Below, piece after piece: positions 1 through 58,342 of a stretch of DNA of 64,000 nt (position 1 is the stretch's first letter; each line of letters starts with the position of its first letter). The notes beneath the pieces were generated by a model, which saw only the letters and a program-made list of their open reading frames with translations, was not told the origin of the DNA and made no database searches. Both the position numbers and the translations under genes were made by a program. Source of the DNA: Balanoglossus misakiensis (lineage: Eukaryota; Animalia; Hemichordata); contig CM082591.2 in NCBI GenBank assembly GCA_040954595.2, forward strand, positions 5,301,009 to 5,365,008, given 5' to 3'.

Positions 1-3000
1 TTTCATTTGAATATAGTAGATAAACCGCCCAACCATTAACAATGTGTAATTAAATTTTTTCGAATTTTCCACAAATCATAAAAAGGTTTCTTTAAAACGA
101 TAAGAAGTCATATCTTGAAGAAAACATATTTAAATAAAACATATGGTTTCATAATCCTATAAGCCTCATTAGCTGGAATCAATTGCTCACTATACCGATA
201 CTATAGTAGCCCACAACGGTCACATAGTCGACAAATGCATTCGAGACTCACAACCCAAAAGTATATGTACATACAATATATTGTGTTATTAAACCGAATA
301 TTGGACATTATATCGTCCTTTTGAAATTGAGTTAAACAAGACGCCGCAGTTGATAATAAAAAAATCATAATGAAAATAACAGAAACAACTTATGTACTTC
401 AAGATACAGGATTTGTAAAAACAACAATTTTTCATTAAATTCATAATTTCTCCCAAGTAACCGAGATTCTTGTAAATTTATGTAAGGATACTATTTTTTG
501 CGAAAAATTTAATAAATGATAATTCATACACAGTAATATTTATCTCCTAATTAGTATGTTTTTAAAAAAAAAACCTTTAAATATATTTGAATACAATTGA
601 AAATTTTACAATTTCTTTTCTCTGTTAATAGAGGATGCTATAGTTTTGTAAGTGTGAATGCTATCAGTTTGGCAGATGGCTCGATATTTTACACTGTTTA
701 TGCATGCGTACAAATGGCAGAGACCATCTGCATATTCTTACGTCTAGATCCTCTTGTAATTTTAGTAATTGAAATAAGTAGGTTCGCAACTGCATAAATT
801 ATCGCGAGAACCTGTGTAAGAGGAGCTATGTATATTGTATATAGCTGTCTACGATTTGAAATACTTGCAAACAGAAAAGCTATCTTAGCCCAATTTTACA
901 AAGTTAACATCGCCAAGCAATGTAAAGACTGCGCACTAAAGTATCATATCAGGTTGCTTTTAAACTTTCATAAGTGTTCGCATCTTGAGTTTCTGGAGAT
1001 AGAGACGCGTACACAGCTTCCGTCCCATCGGCCACTGCAGCGTTTACATTTACATGTCCGGATTGGGCTTGATCATAGCCAGTCGTCGCTTGTGAAACGG
1101 AGGGGTCAGATTGCAGGTCTCCTAAATCTATGTCGGGCCCATTCCCTGAGGCTTGTTTAGCAGCATCCTGATTATCATGTGGTTTTCTTCCCCGCTTATG
1201 GCGACAGTGTCTTATTCCAAACAATAATCCAACCAGCAAAGCAGCTGTGAGAATGCCGAGAAAGAATCCGATCACCACCCCTACAAAGCCGGTAACAGAC
1301 GGGACATCTGTGTTATCAAATGTAGTATGCGTTGCAACAACGGTTTTCTCAGAGTGTGTTCCTGTTGATGGTACGGTTGTTTCTGTGGATATGGTCGTTA
1401 TTGTTGGGACCACATTATTTCCCTTGACTGTTGAAGATAACGGGACAGTCTGGTCTACGTCACGGATGTTTAGTACCCTTACCCCCAACGATGTCCCTTC
1501 TGCGTTGGTGGCCACGCAGGAATACGAACCCGAGTCTGCCATTTCAACGGATGAGATCAGGAGGCTCCCGTTGTCAACCTGAACCAACTTTTCATGCGAA
1601 CACGCATTCTGCATTTGAGGGTATACAGCCTCCCCACCAGGGGTGAGCCAATATTTAAATGGGTCTGGTACACCTACTACGTCACAATCCAGAGTTACAT
1701 CGTCACCCACGTCGGTGATTATCACTTCGAATACTGTCACAGTGCTAAATACCGGAAGTGGACAACACGTCATGTTGTCCGGTGGTATTTGCAATAACTC
1801 ACGTCCTGCAAGATGATCTGGTGAATTACACACCGTTGGTAAATATCCCAAATTCAATCGATGACTGTTGTCATCCAGCCACAGTCTGAAATCTCGTAAA
1901 CGGCAGTCACACGACCAAGGATTATCGTTAATGTATAAATAACGTAATTTGTCAAGTCCATGGAAAATGTTGCCCGGTAAAGTTGTGATGTCGGTACTGT
2001 ACATATCCAGTCGCTGCAGGTGACCTAAGCCAGCGAATATTTTCGATGGCAAAGTCATAATTGGGTTTCTAAATAAGTAGAGGTAAACCAAATTCGTTAA
2101 CCCATTAAAAACGGTTTCGGGTAGTATAGTTAGTTGATTATCGTACACATACAACGTATTCAAATTTCCCAGGCCCCGAAATAAGTTTTTAGGCAATGCA
2201 TTAATTTGATTGCTGTGTAAATAAAGAGTGCGAAGATTTGTCAATCCATCAAATAAATTTTTAGGTACACACGTTAATTTATTACCAGACAAATAAATCG
2301 TTTCGATGTCTGTCAGTTCATGGAAAATTCTTTCTGGCAAATGGGTGATTTGATTACCATATATGTAAATGGTTCTTAGTTTGGATAGATCCTTGAAAGT
2401 GTTCTCTTGAAGTGTCTCGATACGGTTGGACCACAGTTGAAGATAAGTTAAACTGTTCAGACCAATGAATGCATCTTCGGCTATATAGTAAATTCTGTTT
2501 CTAAACAGCTCTAGCCGTATCAATTCTGAATAGCCGAGAAATGATCCACTTTCAATTCTAGTTATTTTGTTGTGATTGAGTGCAAGTATAGTTGTGTTGT
2601 ATGGTACATCTGAAGGGATTTCCGTCCAGCCTCGGTAATTACAATTGACATCCGTGCCCGAACAAGAGCAGTTTGTTGGACATCCTTGAGTTTGCCGAAG
2701 TAGTGATAAAGCACAGAAAATGAAACCCAGTCCACACAGATATGACATGTCGATGAGTGATGGAGTACTCTGTGGGCAGAATATAATATATATTCAGTTA
2801 TTTTCACATAATTTCTTTAGTTATGTACCGTTCTTAAGATGTCATGGTGGTATTTATTGCGGGTTGTGTGCATTGAAATTGTTGCTGATACACACGCATT
2901 CGATCTATGAATGAAATGATCTTGCACAACAACACACTTTGAAAATCAGTCGTTGTCTGCAAGATTTGAATGATTTTAATATTCTGGCAAATGTCACGGA

Positions 3001-4135
3001 ATATACAGCGTTTTATGTGGGCTGGTGCAGCTCACTGGTTTTCTTTGGAGATGATGAATAAAGTAGTCTTTTCCGGGTTCAAAGGTCCGTGACCGAAGGA
3101 TGACAATAGGTACAATACCAGGCTGTGTGCCGATATGAGGTGTGCCGATATAACAAGACGTGCTTAGGCTTGGTAAACAATGGCGGATCTCTTTCACTCT
3201 CTTCTCACCCAGACACATTTAAGAAGGAATAGAAGCAGATATGACGTTTGTTTGGGGCTCTGGCACAAATAAGCAATTTGCCAAAGATGCAAAATAGAAC
3301 TCAAGACGTATCAAGAAGTGGTTTATACAAGCCGTCGTTGAGACGTGCACAGCGGTTTCGTGCATACAAAACCGAGTGTCGTGTCCAAAGTGGGTAATAG
3401 CACCCGACGGAACAGTCAGATGTTCCAGCTTAAAAACGGGCAAACCTGTTAATTTGATCATTTTGGTATCATGAATGCGACAGCAAATAGTTTGCCAGAC
3501 AGATATTTTGTTGTTGACACTGACTCATAGCTCTGGCGTGATTCTAATGTCCACAGATGACCAGTTCCATTTGCCAATTCATGCGTAACCAAGTTGTTTA
3601 CAAGGGCGCATTGAAAAGTGGAATTTTGCATTCCCCTAATTTTGTTTATACTCGTAGGCTATATGAATAAAAGCCAAAATTCATTTAATATTCGCGCTTC
3701 ATCTTGTTGTCACATACAATCTCAACTGAAATCGCTGCATGTGATAAACTTACATAGTGATAGAGTTTATGCTGGTATGGTTGGAAAACAGATCTGATAA
3801 TGCTCAACGACAACAAAAATACTTACGTTGACGATTTGTATAATGAATGACAAAATTTTAACTGTGTGGGTAAATGTGGGTAAGACTTACCCTACAATGT
3901 TTCAATGTGCTTAGACACAATCCAGCTTATGCCAGTGTTCTTAGATAGACTCGTGACTGTCCCTGTGCGGTGCTGTCGGCAAGTTTTTTTCTATAAAGGG
4001 TGGGGCAACAAGCATTAGGTAAATGGGAGCAATTATTCACTTTCATGACCCCATGTCATGACGTTTACATCCTGGTATTTCGCGGGGATGAATTTACCAT
4101 GATTTGAAAGTGAACTTTTGAAACAAGTAAACCAC
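1..4135. repeat. Segmental duplication unit containing A1
   Basis: Base 1 (tttcatttgaatatagtagataaaccgccc) recurs at ~4783 and ~14304; homology runs through the gene to aagtaaaccac (~4135, ~8914, ~18567). Confidence 0.92.
949..2748 (-). CDS. LRR-Ig-TM receptor, type A copy 1 (A1); VLR-like/LRRIG-type ectodomain
   Basis: 599 aa ORF: signal peptide, LRRNT (CPTNCSC..C), 9 LRRs mostly of 24 aa plus NPWSCDC LRRCT, Ig domain (VTLDC..W..DSGSYSC), Thr-rich stalk, TM (VVIGFFLGILTAALLVGLLFGI), tail ending YASL-x9-YESL. Confidence 0.95.
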   Translation of the reverse strand: MSYLCGLGFIFCALSLLRQTQGCPTNCSCSGTDVNCNYRGWTEIPSDVPYNTTILALNHNKITRIESGSFLGYSELIRLELFRNRIYYIAEDAFIGLNSLTYLQLWSNRIETLQENTFKDLSKLRTIYIYGNQITHLPERIFHELTDIETIYLSGNKLTCVPKNLFDGLTNLRTLYLHSNQINALPKNLFRGLGNLNTLYVYDNQLTILPETVFNGLTNLVYLYLFRNPIMTLPSKIFAGLGHLQRLDMYSTDITTLPGNIFHGLDKLRYLYINDNPWSCDCRLRDFRLWLDDNSHRLNLGYLPTVCNSPDHLAGRELLQIPPDNMTCCPLPVFSTVTVFEVIITDVGDDVTLDCDVVGVPDPFKYWLTPGGEAVYPQMQNACSHEKLVQVDNGSLLISSVEMADSGSYSCVATNAEGTSLGVRVLNIRDVDQTVPLSSTVKGNNVVPTITTISTETTVPSTGTHSEKTVVATHTTFDNTDVPSVTGFVGVVIGFFLGILTAALLVGLLFGIRHCRHKRGRKPHDNQDAAKQASGNGPDIDLGDLQSDPSVSQATTGYDQAQSGHVNVNAAVADGTEAVYASLSPETQDANTYESLKAT

Positions 4136-5732
4136 ACTCAGATTACTAACGTTTTGTTCTAGCAATGACACGGTTACCTTTCGCCTCAGTAGGGAATCCA
4201 AGCCCAGTTCATAGCTGCGCTGTTTGCAGTGTGTAATTAGCTTTGTATTTCCACATTTGCAATCAACACCATCTCTTTAGTTAAATTATTCGGAATCGGG
4301 ATAATATCCATGCTCATTTTTCATCATAGGGCCAAATAAAAAAAAAATTGCTGTTCCGATTACCCGACCTACCCTAATTTAACCCGCCCACCCTACACTT
4401 TTAGAGCTTCGTAAACCTGGAAGTAAAAATATCGATGTCAATTTTTTGAAAATTGCGCGAATCGAGTACTATGACGAAATCGCGCGCATCACGCAAGAAC
4501 CCATGCTTTGCAAATGAGATGGAATGTATTCACATAGTGTGTTCATAGCCTTAAGACATATCATTTATTAACTGATTAAATTAAATTACAAAATAATTGT
4601 TTGTATGTTAATAATTAATGTATATCATATGCGTTGGTTCATATCCTATACATGTAAGATTTATAGTTATACAAATACATGCAAAATGGTAAATTCAGTA
4701 AAATGCAGAGACAGCGTGTTACAAAAGATAGGGCATAACACGCTCAGTCAGTCAAGACATAATATAATGAAATTAACCATAGTTTCATTTGAATATAGTA
4801 GATAAACCGCCCAACCATTAACACTGTTTAAATTTCTTCGAATTTTCCACAATTCATAAAAAGGTTTCTTTAAAATGATAAGAAGTCATATCTTGAGGAA
4901 AACATAGTTACATAAAAAAGGTGGTTTTTATAATCATATAAGCCTCATTAGCTGGAATCAATTGCTCCCTATACCGATAGTATAGTAGCCCACAACGGTC
5001 ACATAGTCGACAAATGCATTCGAGACTCACAACCCAGAAGTATATGTACACACAATATATTGTGTTATTAAACCGAATATTAGACATTATATCGTTTTTT
5101 TTAAATTGAGTTAAACAAGACGCCGCAGTTGATTATAAAAAAAATTATAATGAAAATAACAGAAAAAACTTATGTACTTCAAGATACAGGATTTGTAAAA
5201 ACAACAATGTTTCATTAAATTCATAATTTCTCCCAAGTAACCGAGATTCTTGTAAATTTATGTAAGGATACTATTTTTTGCGAAAAATTTAATAAATGAT
5301 AATTCATACACAGTAATATTTATCTCCTAATTAGTATGTTTTTTTTAAAAAAAACTTTAAATATATTTAAATACAATTGAAAATTTTACAATTTCTTTTC
5401 TCTGTTAATAGAGGATGCTATAGTTTTGTAAGTGTGAATGCTATCAGTTTGGCAGATGGCTCGATATTTTACACTGTTTATGTATGCGTACAAATGGCAG
5501 AGACCATCTGCATATTCTTACGTCTAGATCCTGTAGTAATTTTAGTAATTGAAATAAGTAGGTTCGGAACTGCATAAATTATCGCGTCAAGCTGTGTAAG
5601 AGGAGCTATGTATATTGTATATAGCTGTCAACGATTTGAAATACTTGCAAACAGAAAAGCTATCTTAGCCCAACTTTACAAACATCGCCAAGCGATGTAA
5701 AGACTGCGCACTGAAGTATCATATCAGGTTGC

Positions 5733-7526
5733 TTATAAACTTTCATAACTGTTCGCATCCTGGGTTTCTGGAGATAGAGACGCGTACGTATCTTCCGTCC
5801 CATCGGCCACTGCAGCGTTAACATATACCTGTCCGGATTGGGCTTGATGGCCGCTCTTCAGTTGTGAATCGTGGACATAAGATTGTAGGTTTCCTAAATT
5901 TATGTCGGCCCCTGTTGGCGTTTCTGCCTTAGACGCTTGTGCAACAGTATCTCGGTTATCATGTGGTCTTCTTCCCCGCTTATGGCGACAGTGTCTTATT
6001 CCAAACAATAATCCGACCAGCAAAGCAGCTGTGAGAATGCCGAGAAAGAATCCGATCACCACCCCTACAAAGCCGGTAACAGATGGGACATCTGTGTTAT
6101 CAAATGTAGTATGCGTTGCAACAGCGGTTTTCGCAGGGTGTGTTCCTGTTGATGGTACGGTTGTTTCTGTGGATGTGGTCATTATTGTTGGGACCACATT
6201 ATTTCCCTTGACTGTTGAAGATAACGGAACAGTCTGGTCTACGTCACGGATGTTTAGTACCCTTACCCCCAACGACGTCCCTTCTGCGTTGGTGGCCACG
6301 CAGGAATACGAACCCGAGTCTGTCATTTCAACGGATGAGATCAGGAGGCTCCCGTTGTCAACCTGAACCAACTTTTCATGCGAACACGCGTTCTGCAGTT
6401 GAGGGTATACAGCCTCCCCACCTGGGGTGAGCCAATATTTAAATGGGTCTGGTACACCCACTACGTCACAATCCAAAGTTACATCGTCACCCAAGTCGGC
6501 GATTATCACTTGGAAGAATGTGTTGAATACCGGAAGTGGATAACACGTCATGTTGTCCGGTGGTATTTGCAATAACTCACGTCCTGCAAGATGATCTGGT
6601 GAATTACACAACATTGGTGAATATCCCAAATTCAATCGGTGACTGTTGTCATCCAGCCACATTCTGAAATCCCGTAAACGGCAGTCACACGACCAAGGAT
6701 TATTGTAAATGTATAAATAACGTAAGTTGTCAAGTCCATGGAAAATCTTTCCCGGTAAAGTTGTGATGTCGGTATTGTACATATGCAGTTGCTGCAGCTG
6801 ACCTAAGCCAGTGAATATTTTCGATGGCAACGTTTTAAGTGGGTTTAGATGTAAGGTGAGGGATAGCAACTCCGTTAACCCATTAAAAATGGTTTCTGGT
6901 AGTGCTGTAAGTTGATTATTGTATATGGACAACGTATTCAAATTTCCCAGGCCCCGAAATAAGTTTTTTGGCAATGCATTAATTTGATTTTCGTATAAAT
7001 AAAGAGCGCTAAGATTTGTCAATCCATCAAATAAATGTTCAGGTACACACGTTAATTTATTACCAGACAAATGAATCACTTCGATGTCTGTCAGTTCATG
7101 GAAAATTCTTTCTGGCATATGGGAGATTTGATTACTATTTATGTAAATGTATCTTAGTTTGGATAGATCCTTGAAAGTGTTCTCTTGAAGTGTCTCGATA
7201 CGGTTGGACCACAGTTGAAGATAAGTTAAACTGTTCAGACCAATGAATGCATCTTCGGCTATATAGTAAATTCTGTTTCTAAACAGCTCTAGCCATATCA
7301 ATTCCGAATAGCCGAGAAATGATCCACTTTCAATTCTAGTTATTTCGTTGCTCCAAAGTCTAAGTATAGTTGTGTTGTATGGTACATCTGAAGGGATTTC
7401 CGTCCAGCCTCGGTTACCACAATTGACGTCCGTGCCAGAACAAGAGCAGTTTGTTGGACATCCTTGAGTTTGCCGAAGTAGCGATAAAGCGCAGAAAATG
7501 AAACACAGTCCACACAGATATGCCAT
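5733..7526 (-). CDS. LRR-Ig-TM receptor, type A copy 2 (A2)
   Basis: 597 aa ORF with the same architecture as A1; tail contains YVN and YASL-x9-YESL. Confidence 0.95.
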   Translation of the reverse strand: MAYLCGLCFIFCALSLLRQTQGCPTNCSCSGTDVNCGNRGWTEIPSDVPYNTTILRLWSNEITRIESGSFLGYSELIWLELFRNRIYYIAEDAFIGLNSLTYLQLWSNRIETLQENTFKDLSKLRYIYINSNQISHMPERIFHELTDIEVIHLSGNKLTCVPEHLFDGLTNLSALYLYENQINALPKNLFRGLGNLNTLSIYNNQLTALPETIFNGLTELLSLTLHLNPLKTLPSKIFTGLGQLQQLHMYNTDITTLPGKIFHGLDNLRYLYIYNNPWSCDCRLRDFRMWLDDNSHRLNLGYSPMLCNSPDHLAGRELLQIPPDNMTCYPLPVFNTFFQVIIADLGDDVTLDCDVVGVPDPFKYWLTPGGEAVYPQLQNACSHEKLVQVDNGSLLISSVEMTDSGSYSCVATNAEGTSLGVRVLNIRDVDQTVPLSSTVKGNNVVPTIMTTSTETTVPSTGTHPAKTAVATHTTFDNTDVPSVTGFVGVVIGFFLGILTAALLVGLLFGIRHCRHKRGRRPHDNRDTVAQASKAETPTGADINLGNLQSYVHDSQLKSGHQAQSGQVYVNAAVADGTEDTYASLSPETQDANSYESL

Positions 7527-9476
7527 GTCGATGACTGATGGAGTATTCTGCGGGGAGAATATAATAATTATATTCAGTTATTTTCACATAATTCCTTTCA
7601 AAGTTATGTACCGTTAGTAAGATGTCATGGTGGTATTTATTTCGGGTTGTGTTCATTGAAATTGTTGCTGATACACACGCATTCGATCTATGAATGAAAT
7701 GATCTTGCACAACAACACACTTTCAAAATCAGTCGTTGTCTGCAAGATTTGAATGATTTTAATATTCTGGCAAATGTCACGGAATATACAGCGTTTTATG
7801 TGGGTGGCTGCGGCTCGCTGGTTTTCTATGGAGATGATGAATAAAGTAGTCTTTTCCGGGTTCAAAGGTCAGTTACGGAAGGATGACAATAAGTACAATA
7901 CCTGGCGGTGTGCTGATATGAGCTGTGTCGATATAACAAGACGTGCTTAGGCTTGGTAAACAATGGCGGATCTCTTTCACTCTCTTCTCACCCAGACATA
8001 TTTAAGAAGGAATAGAAGCAGATATGACGTTTGTTTGGGGCTCTGGCACAAATAAGAAATTTGCCAAAGCTGCAAAAGAGAACTCAAGACGTATCAAGTA
8101 GTGGTTTATAGAAGCCGTCGTTGAGACTTGCGAAGCGGTTTCGTGCATACAAAACCGAGTGTCGTGTCCACAGGGGTAATAGCACCCGACGGAACAGTAA
8201 GATGTTCCAGCTTAAAAACGGGCAAACCTGTTAATTTGATCATTTTGGTATCATGAATGCGACAGCAAATAGTTTGCCAGACAGATATTTTGTTGTTGAC
8301 ACTGACTCATAGCTCTGGCGTGATTCTAATGTCCACAGAGGACCAGTTCCATTTGCCAATTCACGCGTAACCAAGTTGTTTACAAGGGCGCATTGAAAAG
8401 TGGAATTTTGCATTCCCCTAATTTTGTTTATACTCGTAGGCTATACGAATAAAAGCCAAAATTCATTTAATATTCGCGCTTCATCTTGTTGTCACATAAA
8501 ATCTCAACTGAATCGCTGCATGTGATAAACTTACAGAGTGATAGAGATTATGCTGGTATGGTTGGAAAACAGATCTGATAATGCTCAACGACAACAAAAA
8601 TACTTACGTTGACGATTTGTATAATGAATGACAAAAGTTTAAGTGTGTGGGTCAATGTGGGTAAGACTTACCCTACAATGTTTCAATGTGCGTAGACACA
8701 ATCCAGCTTATGCCAGTGTTCTGAGGTAGACTCGTGACTGTCCCTGTGCGGTGCTGTCGGCAAGTTTTTTCTAAAAAGGGTGGCGCCACAAACATTTGCT
8801 AAATGGGAGCAATAATTCACTTCCATGACCCCATGTCATGACGTTTACATCCTGGCATTTCGTGGGGATGAATTTACCATGATTTTGAAATTGAACTTTG
8901 AAAAAGTAAACCACGCTTGAATACGTGCACTCTAATTGTAAAATGATTTGTTTTGCAAAAGTATGAAGGATTTGAGCAACGTGAAATATGTGACGTCATG
9001 TCAAGAAAACACTATACGGTGCGTGGTCCTTAGTGACCGTAAAGGGAGTCTATTCAGAGGCTATACATTGAAATGCACAAGTGGCCATAAAAGTTTCCAT
9101 TGACATGGATCTGTGTCACTGGACAAAACGTCACCAACCATTGGTGTACGCAGACTCTGCACAAAGGGGCTAAGATGGCTCCCCTTGCCCCATAGTGCCA
9201 TCTGTACTACAATGGTTGAGACAGATCACACGGTACAGCCGTCACACTTGGGGCTATTTACTCAGAACGCACTATTTTGTAGCCCAGCAAATTCATCCTT
9301 TTATCTAAGTGATTATGTTCATCAATAAAATACTTTAATCTTGGTCGGCAAATGCCATGTTTTTGACTTTGTTGGGATTTTAGTACCCATTCCTGCATAC
9401 CACGATAGTTTTGTACTCTTGCAACGGGCAGTTGAATAAACGGGTACTGGACGATACACATATTGAAATGTTGGGT

Positions 9477-11693
9477 TCAGATTTCTTGCAAATCTATATC
9501 AAATCTCTGCTCAGCTGCTGGCTCGACTGTTCTTGGTTTTCTGTCCTCAGACGTAACATCGACTGTGTTGCCTTGGTTGTCAAAACTCACTGAAAAGCTA
9601 CCATGTTTTTCGTAAGTATTTTGAATCACTTTGCGGCGACAGTAGCGGACCGCAAATAGTATTCCCATCGCTGCCAGAGTCGCGAGAACTCCCAGAAAGA
9701 ATCCGAGCACGGCCCACACGAGATCAGAATTTCTCGTGTTTTCCATTGTTGTGCTGGAATGGTTCCCGCTGATGTGTGTGCTTTTGAAGGGTCTCTCGGT
9801 GTCTGCTCCCCCTTCTGTCGCGGATTCTGTAACTGCAGGTACATTACCCTCCGTTACATGCGGGACTTTTGTGCTACTGAATGACACGGTTGCCGTGGTG
9901 ATTGCCAGTGGCATGGTTGTTTTGGCCAACGTTTCCCCAGCCGTTCTAACCTCAGTTGTCGAGACTATAGATGACAGTGTTTGAGATCTACCTGAAGTTC
10001 TCAATAATGAACTACTCTGTTCTGTATAAGTTACTGTGGATGGTTTATGTGATGTTAACGGCGTTGTTCTTTCTATGTAACTTATCGTGGTTGGTAAATC
10101 AGGTGTTGATGTGAATGGAGTGGTATGTTCCATATGACTATTTGTTGATGTCATTGCTAATGTTGTTAACGGCGAAGTCTGTTCTGTGTAACCGAGATTT
10201 AGTATTCTTACACCCACAGACGTTCCCTGTGAGTTCGTCGCGACGCAAGAATACGAACCCAAATCTGACATCTGTACGTTTTGAATGAAGAGGCCCCCGC
10301 CATTTGTACGACCCGTGCTTTCATTCGGACACGTATCTTGCGATGGTAGGCGTACAACCAAACCTGGTGGAGTAATCCAGTATTTATCTGGATCGGGCTC
10401 GCCAACTACGTCACAATCCAAAGTCACGCTGTGCCCTATGTCTGTGGTTAGTGTTCTAACCGGCGTGACGAATACCGGAAGTGGATAGCAAGTAAGATTG
10501 TTCAGTGGTATTTGCAGCACATTCTCTCCCACGTGGGTGTCTGGGGAATCACAAGTCATAGCTGTAGAACCATAGTAAAGTCGGCCATCATTATCCATGA
10601 GCCACGCTTTAAGGTCTTTCAAACGACAGTCACATGACCAGGGATTGTCGTAGAGGTATAAGTAATCTAAGTCATCAAGACCATCGAACACAGTACTCGG
10701 TAGAGTTGTGAGGCTGTTATTTTGTAGGTACAATTTATCCAATTGGCCCAAACCTTGGAATATTTTCAGCGGTAACGTTGTTAATGCATTGAATTCCAAA
10801 TACAGCTGGCTCAACATATTCAACCGTTCGAAAATGTTCTCTGGCATTGACTTTAACGGGTTTCTGCTCAAAGTGAGAAACTGCAGCTCTACCAAGTCAT
10901 CGAATAGCCGTCCAGGCAACGTGGTGATCTTATTAGAGTTTAGATACAGTTTCTCCAGACTTGATAGTCCGCTGAACAGATCGGCTGCTAGGCACGCCAG
11001 TTTATTGCTGGCTAGGTGAAGAGTTTGAAGATGTGCGAGTCCGCGGAAGATACCCGCGGGTAAGTGTGTGATTTGGTTATTGTATGCGTAAATAGCACTT
11101 ATGTATCTCAGGTTAGTAAAGAGGTCCTCCCGGAGCGTCGTGAAGTTGTTGTTGTTTAGACCAAGAGTCTCAATTTCACCAAGGCTCTCGAATATTCCTT
11201 CCGGTAGGACACTCAGCTGAGTGAAACTGACGCTCAGGGATCGTATTTTGCCTAGGCCTTGGAAGATTTGTTGTGGCAAGGAACCCAGGCCATTTCTGTA
11301 CACGTTAAGGTGCAACAGCTCGTGCAGACCGTGGAATATAGTCTCCGGCAACGACGATAGCAAGTTCTCGTTGATGTGGAGAGACTGCAGACGATTAAGT
11401 CCAGCGAACGCATCTTCGCCCATGTAGGTGATGTCATTGTGGTCCAGATGCAATTCCAAAAGTTGAGGATATCCCAGAAAGGAGCCGTTCTCCACGCGAG
11501 TTAGGTGGTTGTAGTTCAGTTTCAGAATGGTCGTGTCAATCGATATGTTGGCTGGGATCTCTCTCAGTTGCCGGTAACTGCAATCGACGCGGGTTTGAAA
11601 GCATGAACAATTGGCTGGACACCCTTGGTTCATTGGCAATAGTGTCACAGTGGAAAATAGCAAATAAACGCCACATACAAATAGGTATGCCAT
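9477..11693 (-). CDS. LRR-Ig-TM receptor, type B copy 1 (B1)
   Basis: 738 aa ORF: signal peptide, LRRNT, 12 LRRs plus LRRCT, Ig domain, long Ser/Thr mucin-like stalk, TM (LVWAVLGFFLGVLATLAAMGILFAV), short tail with no YxxL pair. Confidence 0.95.
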   Translation of the reverse strand: MAYLFVCGVYLLFSTVTLLPMNQGCPANCSCFQTRVDCSYRQLREIPANISIDTTILKLNYNHLTRVENGSFLGYPQLLELHLDHNDITYMGEDAFAGLNRLQSLHINENLLSSLPETIFHGLHELLHLNVYRNGLGSLPQQIFQGLGKIRSLSVSFTQLSVLPEGIFESLGEIETLGLNNNNFTTLREDLFTNLRYISAIYAYNNQITHLPAGIFRGLAHLQTLHLASNKLACLAADLFSGLSSLEKLYLNSNKITTLPGRLFDDLVELQFLTLSRNPLKSMPENIFERLNMLSQLYLEFNALTTLPLKIFQGLGQLDKLYLQNNSLTTLPSTVFDGLDDLDYLYLYDNPWSCDCRLKDLKAWLMDNDGRLYYGSTAMTCDSPDTHVGENVLQIPLNNLTCYPLPVFVTPVRTLTTDIGHSVTLDCDVVGEPDPDKYWITPPGLVVRLPSQDTCPNESTGRTNGGGLFIQNVQMSDLGSYSCVATNSQGTSVGVRILNLGYTEQTSPLTTLAMTSTNSHMEHTTPFTSTPDLPTTISYIERTTPLTSHKPSTVTYTEQSSSLLRTSGRSQTLSSIVSTTEVRTAGETLAKTTMPLAITTATVSFSSTKVPHVTEGNVPAVTESATEGGADTERPFKSTHISGNHSSTTMENTRNSDLVWAVLGFFLGVLATLAAMGILFAVRYCRRKVIQNTYEKHGSFSVSFDNQGNTVDVTSEDRKPRTVEPAAEQRFDIDLQEI

Positions 11694-13809
11694 ACCGTCC
11701 TGCTGTTAGGCTACATCAGCTGATGAAATGATCTGGAGAAAAATTCAAAATGTTATTTTTAAACATGGTAACAAAACGCCAAATTTAAGGCTCAGGGATT
11801 TGAAAAGCAACTTAATCTACAGTGGTTTCATTAGCCTATTTGAGTATAAACATTTATTTTAATGCATTGAGGCGGATTTTGTATTTTTTCATGTAGTCAA
11901 AGAAACTCCATTTAGCATGAAATATGTGGTACCATTTATTTCACAGCGTAAATTAATTGCATTCTTTGACTGCCCGCTTGAGGTAAAAAAACGAGTGACA
12001 AAAATGCTAAATTGACCTACATTTTATATTTGCAGACACACACTTGCTTTGTTCATATTACAAAGCGCGTGGGTCAAGGCAGGTCCCTTTTACCTGCCCC
12101 CGAGGAGAACGTTGACATACATTAACACATAAGACAGGCCGTGTCAGTGTACAAGGTAAACACATGCAACAATTACATACAGAATGGGATCTCGGCGGCA
12201 ACACATAGGCCTACGTGCATAGCAGCCGCGCTAGTGAAGGTAAAATCGAGTAGAAATTTAAACCTATGTCAATTCTGACTGGCGCATGTAATACCTTTAA
12301 TGTAACGTGGTCATACACCTCCCTTATTATTTCATAGTTCATTTTTCTTCAGATATACGGTTACCCAGAGATACAGGTGTAGGCCTAGTAGTGTCGCTCA
12401 CAACGACGGCCGCGGGAACCCTTCCCAGTATCCTATAGCACCAGTAAACAGTGTCACCACACTCCTCCCGTATAATGCCAGAGAATTGATATTGCGTACC
12501 ACACAAAGACATACATGTATACTGCTTAGGCTAGTTCAAAAGGAAGACTGCTCACCTAATTGATAAGGCAGCTTACGGTTTTCGGCGGGACAATTTCGTC
12601 GTCTGCGTCTGGGATTCGTGCTTCGCCATAGAAGTTGTAGTTAACGTCATAGGTCAGGGGTCAGACGGTGGGTCACGCCTCTGTTATTGTTCCGGTTCGC
12701 TGTATTCAAATGAACTGCGCTCTGGTATGTTAGGGCCTATAGCCGAAATATCGGTTTGGTTCGCCTGTGTTACTGGCATGTTAGGCCTATTCATGGATAC
12801 TGCGGTATTGGGTCGCTGGATCAATCGAGAAATTAACCGATCCTTCCAGGAAATTTTCGCCCACAACCAAAATGAGACTGAAAATACGGTGTCAGATTTA
12901 TGAATCTCAGCTATTTGGAAAAAGGACTGAAAACTTTCACGAATTACAGTAAAACAAGGCATTGCATTGAATTTGCATGTTGTAATACACGATGAACGAG
13001 TTCTCATTTGCAGATGTACAGGTCAGATTATAGTACCGTCTAGACGTTTGAGTGCATATAATAATAGGCCTACACTCCAAATAACGTACTGAGTCGTGTT
13101 TGAGTCCGTGGAAGACACTTTTACGTTGGCCTAATGAGTGAATTACTTTATATCTTCAATTCATTTCCATTTCGCACCAAGAAACATAACGAGTGGATAT
13201 TAAAATTATTGTTTCTCCATTAAAGATATGTGTGGAGCAATGACGTGGAAATGTTAAGTATCGGTCTATAGACCCGTGAGAAAAAGTGGTCATAAATTAA
13301 GTGATGTTTTATGGCAGGAACTAAAGTTTTGTAGTTTCGTATGGGAAGAAAGTTTTCGTTTACATAATGGCATTTTGAAATGAAGTGAAATCTGAAAATT
13401 ATTTAGTGTCGCTGATAGTGACGGTTTAATGGTCTTTGCATTTCTTCCCATTGTTCTGTTGGCGTGTCGTGACTGTACGTGCATGCAAGGAATTCCTGGG
13501 GTTTCATGGGGCGCGGTGGTTGACTGCTTGTTTACAAAGAGCACCGCGGTCCGGTGTAGCATACATACAGTTGTCACTGTTAGCGGCTTAGGGTCATAAT
13601 ATAGTTAGCGAATTCAATGGATTCAACCTGCTGGTAACAATGACCGCTCTGGTTCGCGGCGTTCAGGTTTTGTGTCGATGCAAATAAGAGCAGGGTGTCC
13701 TTCTCGTCACCTTTGAACCGGGAACTACGGCGCGGTATTTACGCGGCTACATTTTACTTTCGTCAGAATGTATCAAATCGACGTTTCCGCCAGAAGGGTC
13801 TGGGCAGAC

Positions 13810-13866
13810 ATGGCGACGCCGTGCGCGGGAGGGAATTTGACAGGATTCTTCGCGCTATTTCTCTGA
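13810..13866 (+). pseudogene. Truncated copy of exon 1 (signal peptide) of SRCR-WSC-CUB-CCP receptor 1
   Basis: ATG..MATPCAGGNLTGFFALFL* matches MATLCAGGILTGFFALFL at 23535; similarity stops at the duplication breakpoint. Confidence 0.8.
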
Positions 13867-15262
13867 TACAATGATTTCTCTGTCGTCAAAATTGGCAACA
13901 TAACAGGCGAAAACATTGCACCATGATTTAGTTGTTTGCGCCCAAGTGAATACTAATCTATCGTTAACGTCTGTGGAAAAGTAGAAAAAATAATTTGCAT
14001 TTACAGTTAGCTGGCCTCAGTGATTCTCTCATCCAAAAGACACAATAACATTCGTTCCCATGCGTTCATAGCCATAAATCATATTATTTTATTAACTGAT
14101 GCAATGACATTACAATTTTTTTTTAATGTTAATAATAAATGTATATCATATGCGTTGGTTCATATCCTATGCATGTAAGATTTATAGTTATACAAATACA
14201 TGCAAAATGGTAAATTCAGTAAAATGCAGAGACAGCGTGTTACAAAAGATAGGGCATAACACGCTCAGTCAGTCAAGACATAATATAATGAAATTAACCA
14301 TAGTTTCATTTGAATATAGTAGATAAACCGCCCAACCATTAACACTGTTTAAATTTCTTCGAATTTTCCACAATTCATAAAAAGGTTTCTTTAAAATGAT
14401 AAGAAGTCATATCTTGAAGAAAACATAGTTAAATCAAACAGATGGTTTCATAATCCTATAAGCCTCATTAGCTGGAATCAATTGCTCACTATATACCGAA
14501 AGTCGACGTAGCCCACAACGGTCACAAAGTTGACAAATGCATTCGAGACTCACAGCCAAAAGTATATGTACACACAATATATTGTGTTATTAAACCGAAT
14601 ATTGGACATTATATCGTCCTTCTGAAATTGAGTTAAACAAGACGCCGCAGTTGATAATAAAACAATTATAATGAAAATAACAGAAACAACTTATGTACTT
14701 CAAGATACAGGATTTGTAAAAACAACAATGTTTCATTAAATTCATAATTTCTCCCAAGTAACCGAGATTCTTGTAAATTTATGTAAGGAAACTATTTTTT
14801 GCGAAAAAATTAATAAATGATAATTCATACACAGTTATATTTATCTCCTAATCAGTATGTTTTTTAAAAAAATTCCTTTAAATATATTTGAATACAATTG
14901 AAAATTTTACAATTTCTTTTCTCTGTTTATTAAGGATGTTTTATCAGCTTAGTTTTGTAAGCGTGAATGCTATTAGTTTGGCAGATGGCTCGACATTTTA
15001 CACTGATTATGCATGCGTACAAATGGCAGAGACCATCTGCATATTCTTACGTCTAGATCCTCTAGTAATTTTAGTAAGTGAAATAAGTAGGTTCGGAATT
15101 GCATAAATTATCGCGTCAACCAGTGTAAGAGGAGCTATGTATATTGTATAGCTGTCTACGATTTGAAATACTTGCAAACAGAAAAGCTATCTTTATAGCC
15201 CAACTTTACAAACATCGCCAAGCAATGTAAAGACTGCGCATTAAAGTATCATATCAGGTTGC

Positions 15263-17182
15263 TTATAAACTTTCATAAGTGTTCGCATCCTGGGTTTCTG
15301 GAGATAGAGACGCGTACGCAGCTTCCGTCCCATCGGGCATTGCAGCGTTTACATATACGTGTCCGGATTGGGCTTGATGGCCGCTCTTCAGCTGTGAACC
15401 GTGGACATAAGATTGTAGGTTTCCTAAATTTATGTCGGCCCCTGTTGGCGTTTCTTCCTTAGACGCTTGTGCAACAGTATCTCGGTTATCATGTGGTCTT
15501 CTTCCCCGCTTATGGCGACAGTGTCTAATTCCAAACAATAATCCAACCAGCAAAGCAGCTGTGAGAATGCCGAGAAAGAATCCGATCACTGCCCCTACAA
15601 AAAGTGGATTGGCGATCTTCATGTCAGCAGCAGTTTCAGCCGTTTCCTCGGTGACAGACGGGACATCTGTGTTATCAAATGTAGTATGCGTTTCAACAGC
15701 GGTTTTCGCAGGGTGGGTTCCTGTTGATGGTGCGGTTGTTTCTTCGGATGTAGACATTATTGTTGTGTCAGCCTGTCCTGTCGTTGGGATTCCATTGTTG
15801 GTCGGCTCTGTCGTTGGAATCACATCGTTGACCTCCTTTGTTGTTGGGGCCGCACTGTTTCCCATGACTGTCGAAGTTAACGGAACAGTCTGGTCTACGT
15901 CACGGATGTTTAGTACCCTTACCCCCAACGACGTCCCTTCTGCGTTGGTGGCCACGCAGGAATACGAACCCGAGTCTGTCATTTCAACGGATGAGATCAG
16001 GAGGCTCCCGTTGTCAACTTGAACCAACTTTTCATGCGAACACGCGTTCTGCAGTTGAGGGTATACAGCCTCCCCACCAGGGGTGAGCCAATATTTAAAT
16101 GGGTCTGGTTCACCAACTACGTCACAATCCAATGTTACATTGTCACCCACGTCCGTGATTATCACTTCGAATTCTGTGCTGAATACCGGAAGTGGATAAC
16201 ACGTCATGTTGTCCGGTGGTATTTGCAATAACTCACGTCCTGCAAGATGATCTGGTGAATTACACATCATTGGTGGAGATCCCAAATTCAATCGGTGACT
16301 GTTGTCATCCAGCCACATTCTGAAATCCCGTAAACGGCAGTCACACGACCAAGGATTATTGTAAATGTATAAATAACCTGAGTTGTCAAGTCCATGGAAA
16401 ATCTTTCCCGGCAAAGTTGTTATGTCGTTATTGTACATATGCAGCCACTTCAGCTGACCTAAGCCAGTGAATATTTTCGATGGCAAGGTTTTCATTGGGT
16501 TTTGACCTAAGTTGAGGTATGTCAACGTCGTTAACCCATTAAAAACGGTTTCGGGTAGTATAGTTAGTTGATTATCGTACATATACAACGTATGCAAATT
16601 TCCCAGGCCCCGAAATAAGTTTTTAGGCAATGCATTAATTTGATTGCTGTGTAAGTAAAGAGCGCGAAGATTTGTCAATCCATCAAATACATTTTCAGGA
16701 ACACACGTCAATCTATTATGAGCCAAATGAATCCTGTCGATGTCTGTCAGTTCATGGAAAATTCTTTCTGGCAAATGGGAGATTTGATTATTATGTATGT
16801 GAATGTCTCTTAGTTTGGATAGATCCTTGAAAGTGTTCTCTTGAAGTGTCTCGATACGGTTGGACGCCAGGTGAAGAAAAGTTAAACTGTTCAGACCAAT
16901 AAATGCATCTTCAGCTATATAGTAAATTCTATTGCCATGCAGGTCTAGGTGTAGCAATTCTGAATAGTTGATAAAGGATTCGCTTTCAATTCTAGTTATG
17001 TCGTTGTTGTAGAGTAAAAGTTTGGCTGTGTTGTATGGTACATCTGAAGGGATTTCCGTCCAGCCTCGGTTACCACAATTGACGTTCGTGCCAGTACAAT
17101 AGCAGCTTGTTGGACATCCTTGAGTTTGCCGAAGTAGCGATAAAGCACAGAAAATGAAACCCAGTCCACACAGATATGCCAT
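15263..17182 (-). CDS. LRR-Ig-TM receptor, type A copy 3 (A3), long-stalk variant
   Basis: 639 aa ORF with type A architecture; about 42 extra residues in the stalk; tail YVN and YASL-x9-YESL. Confidence 0.95.
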   Translation of the reverse strand: MAYLCGLGFIFCALSLLRQTQGCPTSCYCTGTNVNCGNRGWTEIPSDVPYNTAKLLLYNNDITRIESESFINYSELLHLDLHGNRIYYIAEDAFIGLNSLTFLHLASNRIETLQENTFKDLSKLRDIHIHNNQISHLPERIFHELTDIDRIHLAHNRLTCVPENVFDGLTNLRALYLHSNQINALPKNLFRGLGNLHTLYMYDNQLTILPETVFNGLTTLTYLNLGQNPMKTLPSKIFTGLGQLKWLHMYNNDITTLPGKIFHGLDNSGYLYIYNNPWSCDCRLRDFRMWLDDNSHRLNLGSPPMMCNSPDHLAGRELLQIPPDNMTCYPLPVFSTEFEVIITDVGDNVTLDCDVVGEPDPFKYWLTPGGEAVYPQLQNACSHEKLVQVDNGSLLISSVEMTDSGSYSCVATNAEGTSLGVRVLNIRDVDQTVPLTSTVMGNSAAPTTKEVNDVIPTTEPTNNGIPTTGQADTTIMSTSEETTAPSTGTHPAKTAVETHTTFDNTDVPSVTEETAETAADMKIANPLFVGAVIGFFLGILTAALLVGLLFGIRHCRHKRGRRPHDNRDTVAQASKEETPTGADINLGNLQSYVHGSQLKSGHQAQSGHVYVNAAMPDGTEAAYASLSPETQDANTYESL

Positions 17183-19130
17183 GTCGATAACTGATGGAGT
17201 ATTCTGCGGGGAGAATATAATATATATTCAGTTATTTTCACATAATTCCTTTAGTTATGTACCGTTCTTAAGATGTCATGGTGGTATTTATTTTGGGTTG
17301 TGTTCATTGAAATTGTTGCTGATACACACGCATTCGATCCATGAATGAAATTATCTTGCACAACAACACACTTTCAAAATCAGTCGTTGTCTGCAAGATT
17401 TGAATGATTTTAATATTCTGGCAAATGTCACGGAATATACAGCGTTTTATGTGGGTGGGTGCGGCTCATTGGTTTTCTATGGAGAAGATGAATAAAGTAG
17501 TATTTTCCAGGTTCAAAGGTGAGTGATCGAAGGATGACAATAGGTTCAATACTAGGCGGTGTGCCGATATGAGCTGTGCCGATATAAGAAGATATGCGTA
17601 GGCTTGGTAAACAATGGCGGATCTCTTTCACTCTCTTCTCACCCAGACACATTTAAGAAGGAATAGAAGCAGATATGACGTTTGTTTGGGGCTCTGGCAC
17701 AAATAAGAAATTTGCCAAAGATGCAAAATAGAACTCAAGACGTATCAAGTAGTGGTTTATACAAGCCGTCGTTGAGACGTGCACAGCGGTTTCGTGCATA
17801 CAAAACCGAGTGTCGTGTCCAAAGGGGGTAATAGCACCCGACGGAACAGTCAGATGTTCCAGCTTAAAAACGGGCAAACCTGTTAATTTGATCATTTTGG
17901 TATCATGAATGCGACAGCAAATAGTTTGCCAGACATATATTTTGTTGTTGACACTGACTCATAGCTTTGGCGTGATTCTAATGTCCACAGAGGACCAGTT
18001 CCATTTGCCAATTCACGCGTAACCAAGTTGTTTACAAGGGCGCATTGAAAAGTGGAATTTTGCATTCCCCTAATTTTGTTTATACTCGTAGGCTATGTGA
18101 ATAAAAGCCAAAATTCATTTAATATTCGCGCTTCATCTTGTTGTCACATAAAATCTCAACTGAAATCGCTGCATGTGATAAACTTACATATTGATAGAGA
18201 TTATGCTGGTATGGTTGGAAAAAAGATCTGATAATGCTCAACGACAACAAAAATACTTACGTTGACGATTTGTATAATGAATGACAAAATTTTAACTGTG
18301 TGGGTCAATGTGGGTAAGACTTACCCTACAATGTTTCAATGTGCGTAGACACAACCAGGCTTATGCCAGTGTTCTGAGATAGACTCGTGACTGTCCCTGT
18401 GCGGTGCTGTCGGAAAGTTTTTTTCTATAAAGGGTGGGGCAACAAACATTGGTAAATAGGAGCAATAGTTCACTTCCATGACCCCATATCCTGACGTAGA
18501 CATTCTGGCATTTCGGGGGATGAATTTACCATGATTTTGAAATTGAACTTTGAAAAAAAGTAAACCACGCTTGAATACGTGCACTCTAATCATAAAATGA
18601 TTTGTTTTGCAATAGTATTAAGGATTTATGTAAAGTAAAATGATATGTGGCGTCAATACACTATACGGTGCGTGGTCCTCAATGGCCTTGAACGGGAGTC
18701 TATTCAGAGGCTATACATTGAAATGCACAAGTGGCCATAAAAGTTTCCATTGACATGGATCTGTGTCACTGGACAAAACGTCACCAACCATTGGTGTACG
18801 CAGACTCTGCACAAAGGGGCTAAGATGGCTCCCCTTGCCCCCTATAGTGCCATCTGTATACTACAATGGTTGAGACAGATCACACGGTACAGCCGTTACA
18901 CTTGGGGCTATTTACTCAGAACGCACTATTTTGTAGCCCAGCAAATTCATCCTTTTATCTAAGTGATTATGTTCATCAATAAATTTCTTTAATCTTGGTC
19001 GGCAAATGCCATGTTTTTGACTTTGATGGGATTTTAGTACCCATTCCTGCATACCACGATAGTTTTGTACTCTTGCAACGGGCAGTTGAATAAGCGGGTA
19101 CTGCACGATACATATATTGAAATGTTGGGT

Positions 19131-21347
19131 TCAGATTTCTTGCAAATCTATATCAAATCTCTGCTCAGCTGCTGGCTCGACTGTTCTTGGTTTTCTGTCC
19201 TCAGACGTAACGTCGACTGTATTACCTTGGTTGTCAAAACTCACTGAAAAGCTACCATGTTTTTCGTAAGTATTTTGAATCACTTTGCGGCGACAGTAGC
19301 GGACCGCAAATAGTATTCCCATCGCTGCCACAGTCGTGAGAACTCCCAGAAAGAATCCGAGCACGGCCCACACAAGATCAGAATTTCTCGTGTTTTCCAA
19401 TGTTGTGCTGGAATTGTTCCCGCTGATGTGTGTGCTTTTGAAGGGTCTCACGGTGTCTGCTCCCCCTTCTGTCGCGGATTCTGTAACTGCAGGTACATTA
19501 CCCTCCGTTACATGCGGGACTTTTGTGCTACTGAATGACACGGTTGCCGTGGTGATTGCCAGTGGTATGGTTGTTTTGGCCAACGTTTCTCCAGCCGTTC
19601 TAACCTCAGTTGTCGAGACTATAGATGACAGTGTTTGAGATCTACCTGAAGTTCTCAATAATGAACTACTCTGTTCTGTATAAGTTACTGTGGATGGTTT
19701 ATGTGATGTTAACGGCGTTGTTCTTTCTATGTAACTTATCGTGGTTGGTAAATCAGGTATTGATGTGAATGGAGTGGTATGTTCCATATGACTATTTGTT
19801 GATGTCATTGCTAATGTTGTTAACGGCGAAGTCTGTTCTGTGTAACCGAGATTTAGTATTCTTACTCCCGCAGAAGTTCCCTGTGAGTTCGTCGCTACGC
19901 AAGAATACGAACCCAAATCTGACATCTGTACGTTTTGAATGAAGAGACCCCCGCCATTTGTACGACCCGTGCTTTCATTCGAACACGTATCTTGCGGCTG
20001 TAGGCGTACAACCAAACCTGGTGGAGTAATCCAGTATTTATCTGGATCGGGCTCGCCAACTACGTCACAATCCAAAGTCACGCTGTGCCCTATGTCTGTG
20101 GTTAGTGTTCTAACCGGCGTGACGAATACCGGAAGTGGATAGCAAGTAAGATTGTTCAGTGGTATTTGTAGCACATTCGCTCCCGCATGGGTTTCTGGGG
20201 AATCGCACGTCATAGCTGTAGAACCATAGTAAAGTCGGCCATCATTATCCATGAGCCACGCTTTAAGGTCTTTCAAACGACAGTCACATGACCAGGGATT
20301 GTCGTAGAGGTATAAGTAATCTAAGTCATCAAGACCATCGAACACAGTACTCGGTAGAGTTGTGAAGCTGTTATTTTGTAGGTACAGTTTATCCAATTGA
20401 CCCAAACCTTGGAATATTTTCAGCGGTAACGTTGTTAATGCATTGAATTCCAAATACAGCTGGCTCAACATATTCAACCGTTCGAAAATGTTCTCTGGCA
20501 TTGACTTTAACGGGTTTCTGCTCAAAGTGAGAAACTGCAGCTCTACCAAGTCATCGAATAGACGTCCAGGCAACGTGGTGATCTTATTAGAGTTTAGATA
20601 CAGTTTCTCCAGACTTGATAGTCCGCTGAACAGATCTGCTGCTAGGCACGCCAGTTTATTGCTGGCTAGGTGAAGAGTTTGAAGATGTGTGAGTCCGCGG
20701 AAGATACCCGCGGGTAAGTGTGTGATTTGGTTATTGTATGCGTAAATAGTACTTATGTATCTCAGGTTAGTAAAGCGGTCCTCCCGGAGCGTCGTGAAGT
20801 TGTTGTTGTTTAGATAAAGAGTCTCAATTTCAACAAGGCTCTCGAATATTCCTTCCGGTAGGACACTCAGCTGAGTGAAACTGACGCTCAGGGATCGTAT
20901 TTTGCCTAGGCCTTGGAAGATTTGTTGTGGCAAGGAACCCAGGCCATTTCTGTACACGTTAAGGTGCAACAGCTCGTGCAGACCGTGGAATATAGTCTCC
21001 GGCAACGACGACAGCAAGTTCTCGTTGATGTGGAGAGACTGCAGACGATAAAGTCCAGCGAACGCATCTTCGCCCATGTAGGTGATGTCATTGTGGTCCA
21101 GATGCAATTCCAAAAGTTGAGAATATCCCAGAAAGGAGCCGTTCTCCACGCGAGTTAGGTGGTTGTAGTTCAGTTTCAGAATGGTCGTGTCAATCGATAT
21201 GTTGGCTGGGATCTCTCTCAGTTGCCGGTAACTGCAATCGACGCGGGTTTGAAAGCATGAACAATTGGCTGGACACCCTTGGATCATTGGCAATAGTGTC
21301 ACAGTGGAAAAAAGCAAATAAACGCCACATACAGATAGGTATGCCAT
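19131..21347 (-). CDS. LRR-Ig-TM receptor, type B copy 2 (B2)
   Basis: 738 aa ORF; roughly 23 aa differences from B1 by manual comparison. Confidence 0.95.
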   Translation of the reverse strand: MAYLSVCGVYLLFSTVTLLPMIQGCPANCSCFQTRVDCSYRQLREIPANISIDTTILKLNYNHLTRVENGSFLGYSQLLELHLDHNDITYMGEDAFAGLYRLQSLHINENLLSSLPETIFHGLHELLHLNVYRNGLGSLPQQIFQGLGKIRSLSVSFTQLSVLPEGIFESLVEIETLYLNNNNFTTLREDRFTNLRYISTIYAYNNQITHLPAGIFRGLTHLQTLHLASNKLACLAADLFSGLSSLEKLYLNSNKITTLPGRLFDDLVELQFLTLSRNPLKSMPENIFERLNMLSQLYLEFNALTTLPLKIFQGLGQLDKLYLQNNSFTTLPSTVFDGLDDLDYLYLYDNPWSCDCRLKDLKAWLMDNDGRLYYGSTAMTCDSPETHAGANVLQIPLNNLTCYPLPVFVTPVRTLTTDIGHSVTLDCDVVGEPDPDKYWITPPGLVVRLQPQDTCSNESTGRTNGGGLFIQNVQMSDLGSYSCVATNSQGTSAGVRILNLGYTEQTSPLTTLAMTSTNSHMEHTTPFTSIPDLPTTISYIERTTPLTSHKPSTVTYTEQSSSLLRTSGRSQTLSSIVSTTEVRTAGETLAKTTIPLAITTATVSFSSTKVPHVTEGNVPAVTESATEGGADTVRPFKSTHISGNNSSTTLENTRNSDLVWAVLGFFLGVLTTVAAMGILFAVRYCRRKVIQNTYEKHGSFSVSFDNQGNTVDVTSEDRKPRTVEPAAEQRFDIDLQEI

Positions 21348-58252: not shown

Positions 58253-58342
<90 letters not shown>

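Follow-up and report, generated by a model that had tools for sequence, protein, structure and literature searches.

Apart from proteins of other acorn worms, taken up below, the receptors closest to those considered here are the VLRs of lampreys and hagfish, the Toll-like receptors (TLRs) of sea urchins, certain leucine-rich repeat (LRR) receptors of amphioxus, the LRR-immunoglobulin (Ig) adhesion receptors of vertebrates and the Alr proteins of Hydractinia, with which a gene cluster of the hemichordate Balanoglossus misakiensis is compared below. The cluster lies in a 64-kb stretch of contig CM082591.2 (assembly GCA_040954595.2, positions 5,301,009 to 5,365,008), called here the window, and comprises five uninterrupted minus-strand open reading frames (ORFs), A1, A2, A3, B1 and B2. 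The concave LRR positions of the A genes are under positive selection, the ratio of nonsynonymous to synonymous rates (dN/dS, or omega) being 4-7 across controls, and this is accompanied by an LRR-Ig architecture, a conserved tyrosine motif in the tail, mosaic exchange between the A units and a sister gene, B, with an almost invariant face. On balance, A1-A3 are probably germline-encoded receptors for non-self, with a positively selected concave face and signalling through the tyrosine-motif tail.

The lamprey and hagfish VLRs (PMC12264053) share with the window genes the LRRNT, the 24-residue repeats, the LRRCT, the stalk, and the variability of the concave strands and of the LRRCT loop, whereas the window genes differ in their complete germline ORFs, in the number of repeats (ten in A, 13 in B), in the Ig domain and, for A, in the long tail with tyrosine motifs. 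An incomplete germline gene with a non-coding interruption is the definition of a VLR (PMC12264053), and none of the five ORFs is interrupted; nor do they have an LRR-only ectodomain with a glycosylphosphatidylinositol anchor or short tail, since an Ig domain is present in all five and the A tail has 87 residues. Outside the five genes, no LRR donor cassettes were found in the 64-kb window by tblastn, and a scan for the LRR motif gave seven isolated single-motif matches and no arrays. Because the germline ORFs are complete, the Ig domain is present and donor cassettes are absent from the window, the A and B genes are not VLRs. The VLR set of LRRNT, 24-residue repeats, LRRCT and variable concave strands is present in them, as a scaffold generic to many LRR proteins; the special likeness to VLRs that an earlier note on this DNA had seen in the LRRNT, the 24-residue repeats and the NPWxCDC motif was not supported, these being generic and the defining VLR features failing. 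The best sequence matches in the PDB are LRRC15, IGFALS and RTN4RL2 (Nogo receptor family), and the best fold matches (Foldseek) are NGL2 (3zyi), at the top, and the Nogo receptor, with a VLR appearing among the matches listed only as a fusion partner.

The sea-urchin sccTLR subfamily Ia (PMC3367398) is likewise a multigene family of LRR receptors encoded in the germline, its positively selected sites lying on the concave beta-strands; however, the sea-urchin TLRs use TIR for signalling and run to hundreds, whereas the window genes are few, carry Ig, stalk and tyrosine motifs, and gave no TIR domain when whole proteins and tails were scanned against Pfam. Pfam matches to LRRNT, LRR and Ig were found in all five, and the LRRNT-LRRs-LRRCT plan followed by Ig and a transmembrane segment (TM) places them in the LRR-Ig (LIG) architecture class. 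Amphioxus BbLcLRR (PMC8211107) resembles the A genes in its LRR ectodomain, TM and three (there phosphorylated) tail tyrosines, and in belonging to an invertebrate deuterostome, but has WSC instead of Ig and inhibitory, ITIM-like motifs, and the part of that source available reports no paralogue diversification. Another amphioxus protein, Bf66946, to which the same likenesses and differences apply as to the VLRs, binds bacteria via its concave face (PMC4731796). The vertebrate NGL/LRRC4, LINGO and related receptors follow the same LRRNT-LRR-LRRCT-Ig-TM plan and differ in an identity of 23-30% in the matches listed, in their position outside the enteropneust clade described below and in the lack of a double-YxxL tail. 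The Hydractinia Alr proteins (PMC9546547) are clustered invertebrate type I receptors of which only some carry an ITAM (immunoreceptor tyrosine-based activation motif); they have Ig/Fn3 ectodomains without LRRs and a known allorecognition role. Neither a hemichordate LRR-Ig family nor an LRR-Ig receptor with an ITAM was found in the literature searched, most subscription papers and supplements being outside its scope. The 2008 amphioxus immune-repertoire paper reportedly contains many LRR-Ig gene models, which could bear on novelty. Concave selection in sea-urchin TLRs and tyrosine-motif LRR receptors in amphioxus are thus already known, while their combination, and the family itself, are apparently undescribed.

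Positive selection on the concave face of the A proteins

The concave class was set beforehand as positions 2, 3, 5, 7 and 8 of LxxLxLxxNxL, the formation of the concave face by the LRR strands being established LRR knowledge, stated for VLRs (PMC12264053). In an AlphaFold model of A3 the strands lie at repeat positions 3-5, with block pLDDT of 81-98 over residues 21-330, the model being poor over the Ig domain and beyond (Ig pLDDT 30-46). Variation among A1-A3 affects 41 of 50 concave codons but 17 of the 91 LRR codons that are neither concave nor consensus (Fisher p=1.8e-13); of the 22 codons at which each copy has a residue of its own, 13 belong to the concave class. Pairwise amino-acid differences amount to 25/50, 35/50 and 35/50 on the concave face, as compared with 9-12/117 at convex positions, 5-7/98 in Ig and 0-1/25 in TM; LRR3 is the same in A1 and A2, and the commonest concave residue is tyrosine (31/150). 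In the LRRNT the six changes lie around the cap strands (residues 26-38), and in the LRRCT four of six lie at residues 302-306, the position of the VLR LRRCT loop. These counts bear out the focus of divergence on the concave strands described in the earlier note, whose 21 quoted strand strings are all found as written and whose interval, 949-17182, does run from the A1 stop to the A3 ATG; the near-identity it saw outside the strands holds for convex positions, Ig, TM and flanks, but fails for the A1 tail (23/83 residues different from A2) and for the stalk, where A3 has 27- and 15-residue insertions. That interval also contains B1, a 13-LRR relative left undescribed there, and B2 lies just outside it.

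By counting, concave dN was 0.40, 0.55 and 0.60 in the A pairs, against a gene-wide dS of 0.09-0.13. A fixed-site codon model, run with our own script and with site classes taken from LRR structure, gave a concave omega of 6.15 (profile interval about 4.2-9; likelihood-ratio test statistic, LRT, 84.8 versus omega=1), while the core, convex, cap and signal peptide (SP)/Ig/TM classes gave 0.31-0.64 and the stalk and tail 1.19; with double and triple nucleotide changes allowed, the concave value was 5.18 (LRT 55.7). Tree-free pairwise fits gave 5.4, 5.5 and 7.4 (5.1-6.2 on the LRR region alone), and in the most stringent variant, which let concave codons have a rate of their own, the value was 4.0 (p=4e-4). 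The blind site tests M1a/M2a, M7/M8 and M8a/M8 returned an LRT of about 45 (M7/M8 45.2), and nine of the 11 M2a sites with posterior >0.9 were concave (hypergeometric p=5e-9), the other two being LRR7 position 24 and the start of Ig. The positive selection proposed in the earlier note is therefore upheld (omega about 6, LRT 85); a dN/dS <=1 at concave sites, or an even spread of the variation, which that note had named as speaking against it, was looked for, and neither was found.

A mutational hot spot and old donor tracts are ruled out, because the core codons interleaved with the variable ones are cold (differences at only 1-2/20), third positions are the least changed in the concave codons, and the concave changes show no preference for any base (0.44 per ancestral A, 0.32 per C, 0.46 per G and 0.28 per T). 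On the same lack of base bias in the substitution spectrum, an AID-like or adenine-specific mutational mechanism was rejected, as were old donor tracts on the background level of the interleaved core codons.

The three A units are mosaic (186 runs versus 248.8 +/- 9.2 expected; when thinned, 126 versus 171.6 +/- 7.4), a pattern in line with conversion or unequal crossover between paralogues. Such recombination, the mere three sequences, and a divergence between units of about 5%, within the haplotype range of polymorphic marine invertebrates, would suit an artefactual or neutral origin of the variation through haplotype collapse, a relaxation of constraint, a local mutation hot spot or tracts left over from earlier gene conversion, an origin that is very improbable and already largely refuted: relaxation is unable to give omega >1, the pairwise tests are tree-free, the interleaved codons are cold, unshared spacers of 400 and 196 bases part the units, and a single sample contains four A-type sequences or more. 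In contigs derived from the reads of three DNA runs of that sample, 5 of the 12 pieces compared equal the A1, A2 or A3 difference count exactly. One contig, found in two runs, is over LRR9-10 none of A1-A3 and has 19 differences from A3, of which the 16 listed include five new residues and four new silent codons, the rest being shared with A1 or A2; three of the five new residues are concave (the other two at positions 10 and 24), concave codons making up 10 of the approximately 52 covered, and the contig could represent either an allele or one more paralogue. Contigs that looked like A2/A3 hybrids were discounted as probable products of graph simplification. Contigs with loose ends at 16114, 16362 and 16369 match the LRRCT or Ig part only and then continue as frame-compatible unrelated sequence, which, read by eye, suggests further, more distant family members in the genome.

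Significant mosaicism among the three units, together with variation at the VLR-equivalent face and LRRCT loop, might also be expected of VLR-like somatic diversification, with the A and B genes as templates or products of somatic conversion. This is the least credible of the explanations, given the complete germline ORFs, the lack of cassettes or fragments in the 64 kb and of any C/G or A mutation bias, and a mosaicism that reaches the non-coding flanks, as meiotic exchange would give (pairwise flank differences of the three A units 107/2316, 114/2315 and 112/2311, or 4.6-4.9%). The window sequence bears no sign of somatic assembly.

Tail motif, sister genes and enteropneust relatives

All A tails end in YxxL-x9-YxxL, with Glu three residues before the first Tyr, and those of A2 and A3 also carry an upstream YxN. 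The ITAM consensus Yxx[I/L]x(6-9)Yxx[L/I] (PMC9546547) fits three of three A genes and none of the two B genes, the A spacer of 9 being the upper limit. Shuffled A tails yield the motif in 0.08-0.26%, and the motif columns vary less (1/17) than the other tail columns (24/66; p=0.017). Between the A1 tail (949-1186) and A2/A3 there are 43 substitutions in 280 aligned bases, far above the A1 flanks, with the YxN tyrosine lost and the double YxxL intact, and this tail was possibly exchanged from another copy. Among 111 fetched proteins, the strict motif was found in the last 60 residues of 4/8 hemichordate and 0/103 other sequences, and a relaxed tail pattern in seven, two of them not hemichordate. 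The YxN motif binds Grb2. In amphioxus, SYK phosphorylates an ITAM receptor (PMC13344425), and agreement of the A tails with the consensus strengthens the immune role proposed for them.

The tails bear also on the possibility that the A genes record the escape of an entry receptor, or of a hijacked inhibitory receptor, from a pathogen, with an SHP/SHIP-inhibitory tail and with A and B as a paired or decoy set. An omega >1 on the exposed face is expected here too, and Ptychodera tails compatible with an immunoreceptor tyrosine-based inhibition motif (ITIM), a weak match to the SIT family and a known inhibitory amphioxus LRR receptor (PMC8211107) are consistent with it; however, the window A tails fit the ITAM and not the ITIM pattern, and an endogenous ligand should keep part of the concave face fixed. 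Because change covers all ten repeats, the LRRNT strands and the LRRCT loop, many ligands are favoured over escape from one, and escape appears rather improbable.

The B genes, copied in the same duplicated segments as A2 and A3, differ from one another at 2/65 concave positions (omega 0.64). Their tails contain neither the YxN nor the ITAM motif, with the ORF intact nonetheless, and no frameshifted ITAM was seen in the three frames inspected behind the B stop. With no tail motif, an ORF that is nevertheless intact and a concave face that hardly varies, B might be a decoy or one member of a pair; it probably either has a conserved ligand or acts as a non-signalling partner or decoy. The invariant sister gene within the duplication unit would also agree with the A proteins being identity tags (for allorecognition, gamete recognition or the identity of neurons) that pair with one another or with an endogenous molecule evolving alongside them, as would the architecture of NGL-type adhesion receptors, solved bound to netrin-G, and the Hydractinia Alr, which join Ig-type ectodomains to ITAM/ITIM tails (PMC9546547). 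Identity tags are nevertheless unlikely, the divergence being seen among co-inherited paralogues rather than alleles of one locus and the tail motif in none of the vertebrate LRRC4/LRFN rows fetched. Enteropneusts are, moreover, solitary and non-fusing, and neural LRR-Ig families are usually conserved.

The top protein matches, under automatic names only, come from Ptychodera flava (XP_070559167.1, XP_070557318.1, XP_070557317.1, XP_070559168.1, XP_070557423.1, XP_070557422.1, XP_070557209.1, XP_070559134.1), Glandiceps talaboti (XP_077979274.1) and Saccoglossus. These enteropneust LRR-Ig proteins have the same architecture, 35-39% identity to A3 in the top matches and, in most, the triple-tyrosine tail layout, but their LRR number varies and their expansions are lineage-specific. 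In a tree of 24 rows built on the terminal LRRs together with LRRCT and Ig (a single insect LRIG row was dropped for lack of an anchor, and no VLR row was included), one clade (96/97) unites Glandiceps, five rows from Ptychodera (100/99) and the A and B genes of the window (97/93). Orthology with NGL/LRRC4, LRFN or LRRN was not recovered, the window genes standing in this separate enteropneust clade with the deeper branching weak; a Saccoglossus protein, P0004, has the tail motif but falls on a long branch outside it. The complete ORFs and these nearest relatives bear out the invertebrate germline family proposed in the earlier note. The model XP_070557209.1 (P0236) appears to fuse two tandem Ptychodera copies, its second half having the same motif and spacer, and several other Ptychodera models look N-terminally truncated.

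Compared at the protein level only, and not as a test of selection, three Ptychodera proteins differ over the first six repeats at 18-26/30 concave versus 17-22/60 other positions. Over the last three repeats, the closest Ptychodera pair differs at 3/15 concave and 0/21 other positions, and among 10 pairs the concave share is higher, with one pair equal (5/15 versus 7/21). In a profile search, multi-Ig giants dominate, and among the 150 matches listed four span the whole LRRCT+Ig profile, all of them from Ptychodera or Glandiceps; an ESM Atlas search gave matches under 0.9 only.

Organisation of the locus and its neighbours

The coordinates are collected in Table 1. A similar pyrimidine tract with AG precedes the starts of A1, A2 and the B genes, at 21 nt in each A gene, and because of it the A coding region is likely one exon behind an intron of the 5' untranslated region (5'-UTR).

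Table 1. Positions in the window of the A and B genes, their parts and the duplication units
Feature	Positions	Strand	Remarks
A1	949..2748	-	599-aa single ORF; SP-LRRNT-10 LRR-LRRCT-Ig-stalk-TM-tail; ITAM-consensus motif present, upstream YxN lost
A1 LRR array, repeats 1-10	1915..2595	-	Concave strands variable
A1 YxxL-x9-YxxL motif	961..1011	-	
A2	5733..7526	-	597-aa single ORF; architecture as A1; YxN and YxxL-x9-YxxL in tail
A2 LRR array	6693..7373	-	
A2 YxxL-x9-YxxL motif	5736..5786	-	
A3	15263..17182	-	639-aa single ORF; stalk longer; YxN and YxxL-x9-YxxL in tail
A3 LRR array	16349..17029	-	Predicted beta-strands at repeat positions 3-5
A3 YxxL-x9-YxxL motif	15266..15316	-	
B1	9477..11693	-	Sister gene, 738 aa; 13 LRRs and Ig, stalk long, TM; tail short, lacking ITAM and YxN
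B2	19131..21347	-	738-aa; identity to B1 96.7%
Duplication unit U1	1..4138	.	A1 only; left end open at window edge
Duplication unit U2	4538..13865	.	A2 and B1; preceded by unshared spacer 4138-4538
Duplication unit U3	14061..23590	.	A3 and B2; preceded by unshared spacer 13865-14061
Pyrimidine tract and AG, likely 5'-UTR splice acceptor	17204..17220	-	21 nt upstream of A3 ATG; read from sequence

Beyond the A and B genes, multi-exon genes with SRCR, WSC, CUB and sushi domains occupy 25277-31816 (+), 39426-42243 (+), 45235-49291 (-) and 53212-58775 (+). Two of them have long acidic, tyrosine-rich ORFs behind them, with 20 tyrosines in 29222-31816 and 13 in 41431-42243, often in repeated DNxxYE and VYxEI contexts, and within the first of these ORFs a 150-base internal repeat (30860-31146) doubles one tyrosine motif. 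These neighbours are likely a second tandem family of receptors with tyrosine motifs, and they were counted in favour of the non-self receptor reading of the A genes. A perfect (TGTA)442 microsatellite lies at 53899-55666, apparently in an intron of an SRCR-WSC-CUB gene, and a single ORF at 59872-61014 (+) encodes a 381-aa glycosyltransferase family 2-like protein (E=8e-6).

Interpretation and significance

As receptors for non-self, the A proteins would be expressed in immune cells and would bind a fast-changing microbial or parasite ligand on the concave sheet, rich in Tyr, His and Arg, a site of binding deduced from LRR structural knowledge. Clustering on the ligand would allow a Src-family kinase to phosphorylate the tail tyrosines; the YxN and YxxL-x9-YxxL tail would then draw in Grb2 and a tandem-SH2 kinase of the Syk/Shark type, with phagocytosis or cell activation as the outcome. 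Renewal of the binding faces would take place in the germline, where segments are duplicated, point changes are selected and paralogues exchange sequence in register.

Several points weigh against this interpretation. The immune role, the ligand, the expression and whether the signal is activating or inhibitory are all inferred, and selection by itself does not name the selective agent; it was, moreover, deduced from paralogue divergence, in three full A sequences of one individual. The family is small, with five genes in the window and a few hinted at by contigs, as compared with hundreds of sea-urchin TLRs, and among solved architectures the nearest belong to proteins of neural adhesion (NGL, Nogo receptor, LRRTM). 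The tails are ambiguous as to sign, in that the ITIM pattern is matched as well by two tails from Ptychodera, the second tyrosine is gone from two Ptychodera copies, and for A2 the tail gave a weak match, below threshold, to the SHP2-binding SIT family (E=0.037); the nearest functional precedent, amphioxus BbLcLRR, is inhibitory (PMC8211107). The control offered by B is softened, because B is also less diverged at silent sites (fourfold sites differing 14/345 between B1 and B2 versus 19/241 between A2 and A3; p=0.067), and B may have been homogenised more recently than A.

A more far-reaching proposal, which is tentative and rather doubtful, would see in the locus a hemichordate innate "antigen receptor" family, in which a diversifying LRR face of the VLR type and an ITAM-Syk output of the B-cell or T-cell receptor type would be united in one germline chain, with an invariant partner lacking the signalling tail and with in-register reshuffling. 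If true, this would amount to a population-level repertoire outside chordates, with LRR recognition and ITAM signalling joined without lymphocytes.

Hemichordate immunity is little described; LRR and ITAM go unmentioned in the main text of a Saccoglossus immune-challenge paper, and LRR in the main text of a Schizocardium cell atlas. The A/B family offers a small, tractable set of receptors in which near-identical scaffolds carry differing binding faces. It brings with it an invariant control of its own and a signalling motif that can be put to the test, and it bears both on the germline LRR receptors of early deuterostomes before the somatic assembly of VLRs and on the age of ITAM-type signalling from diversified receptors.

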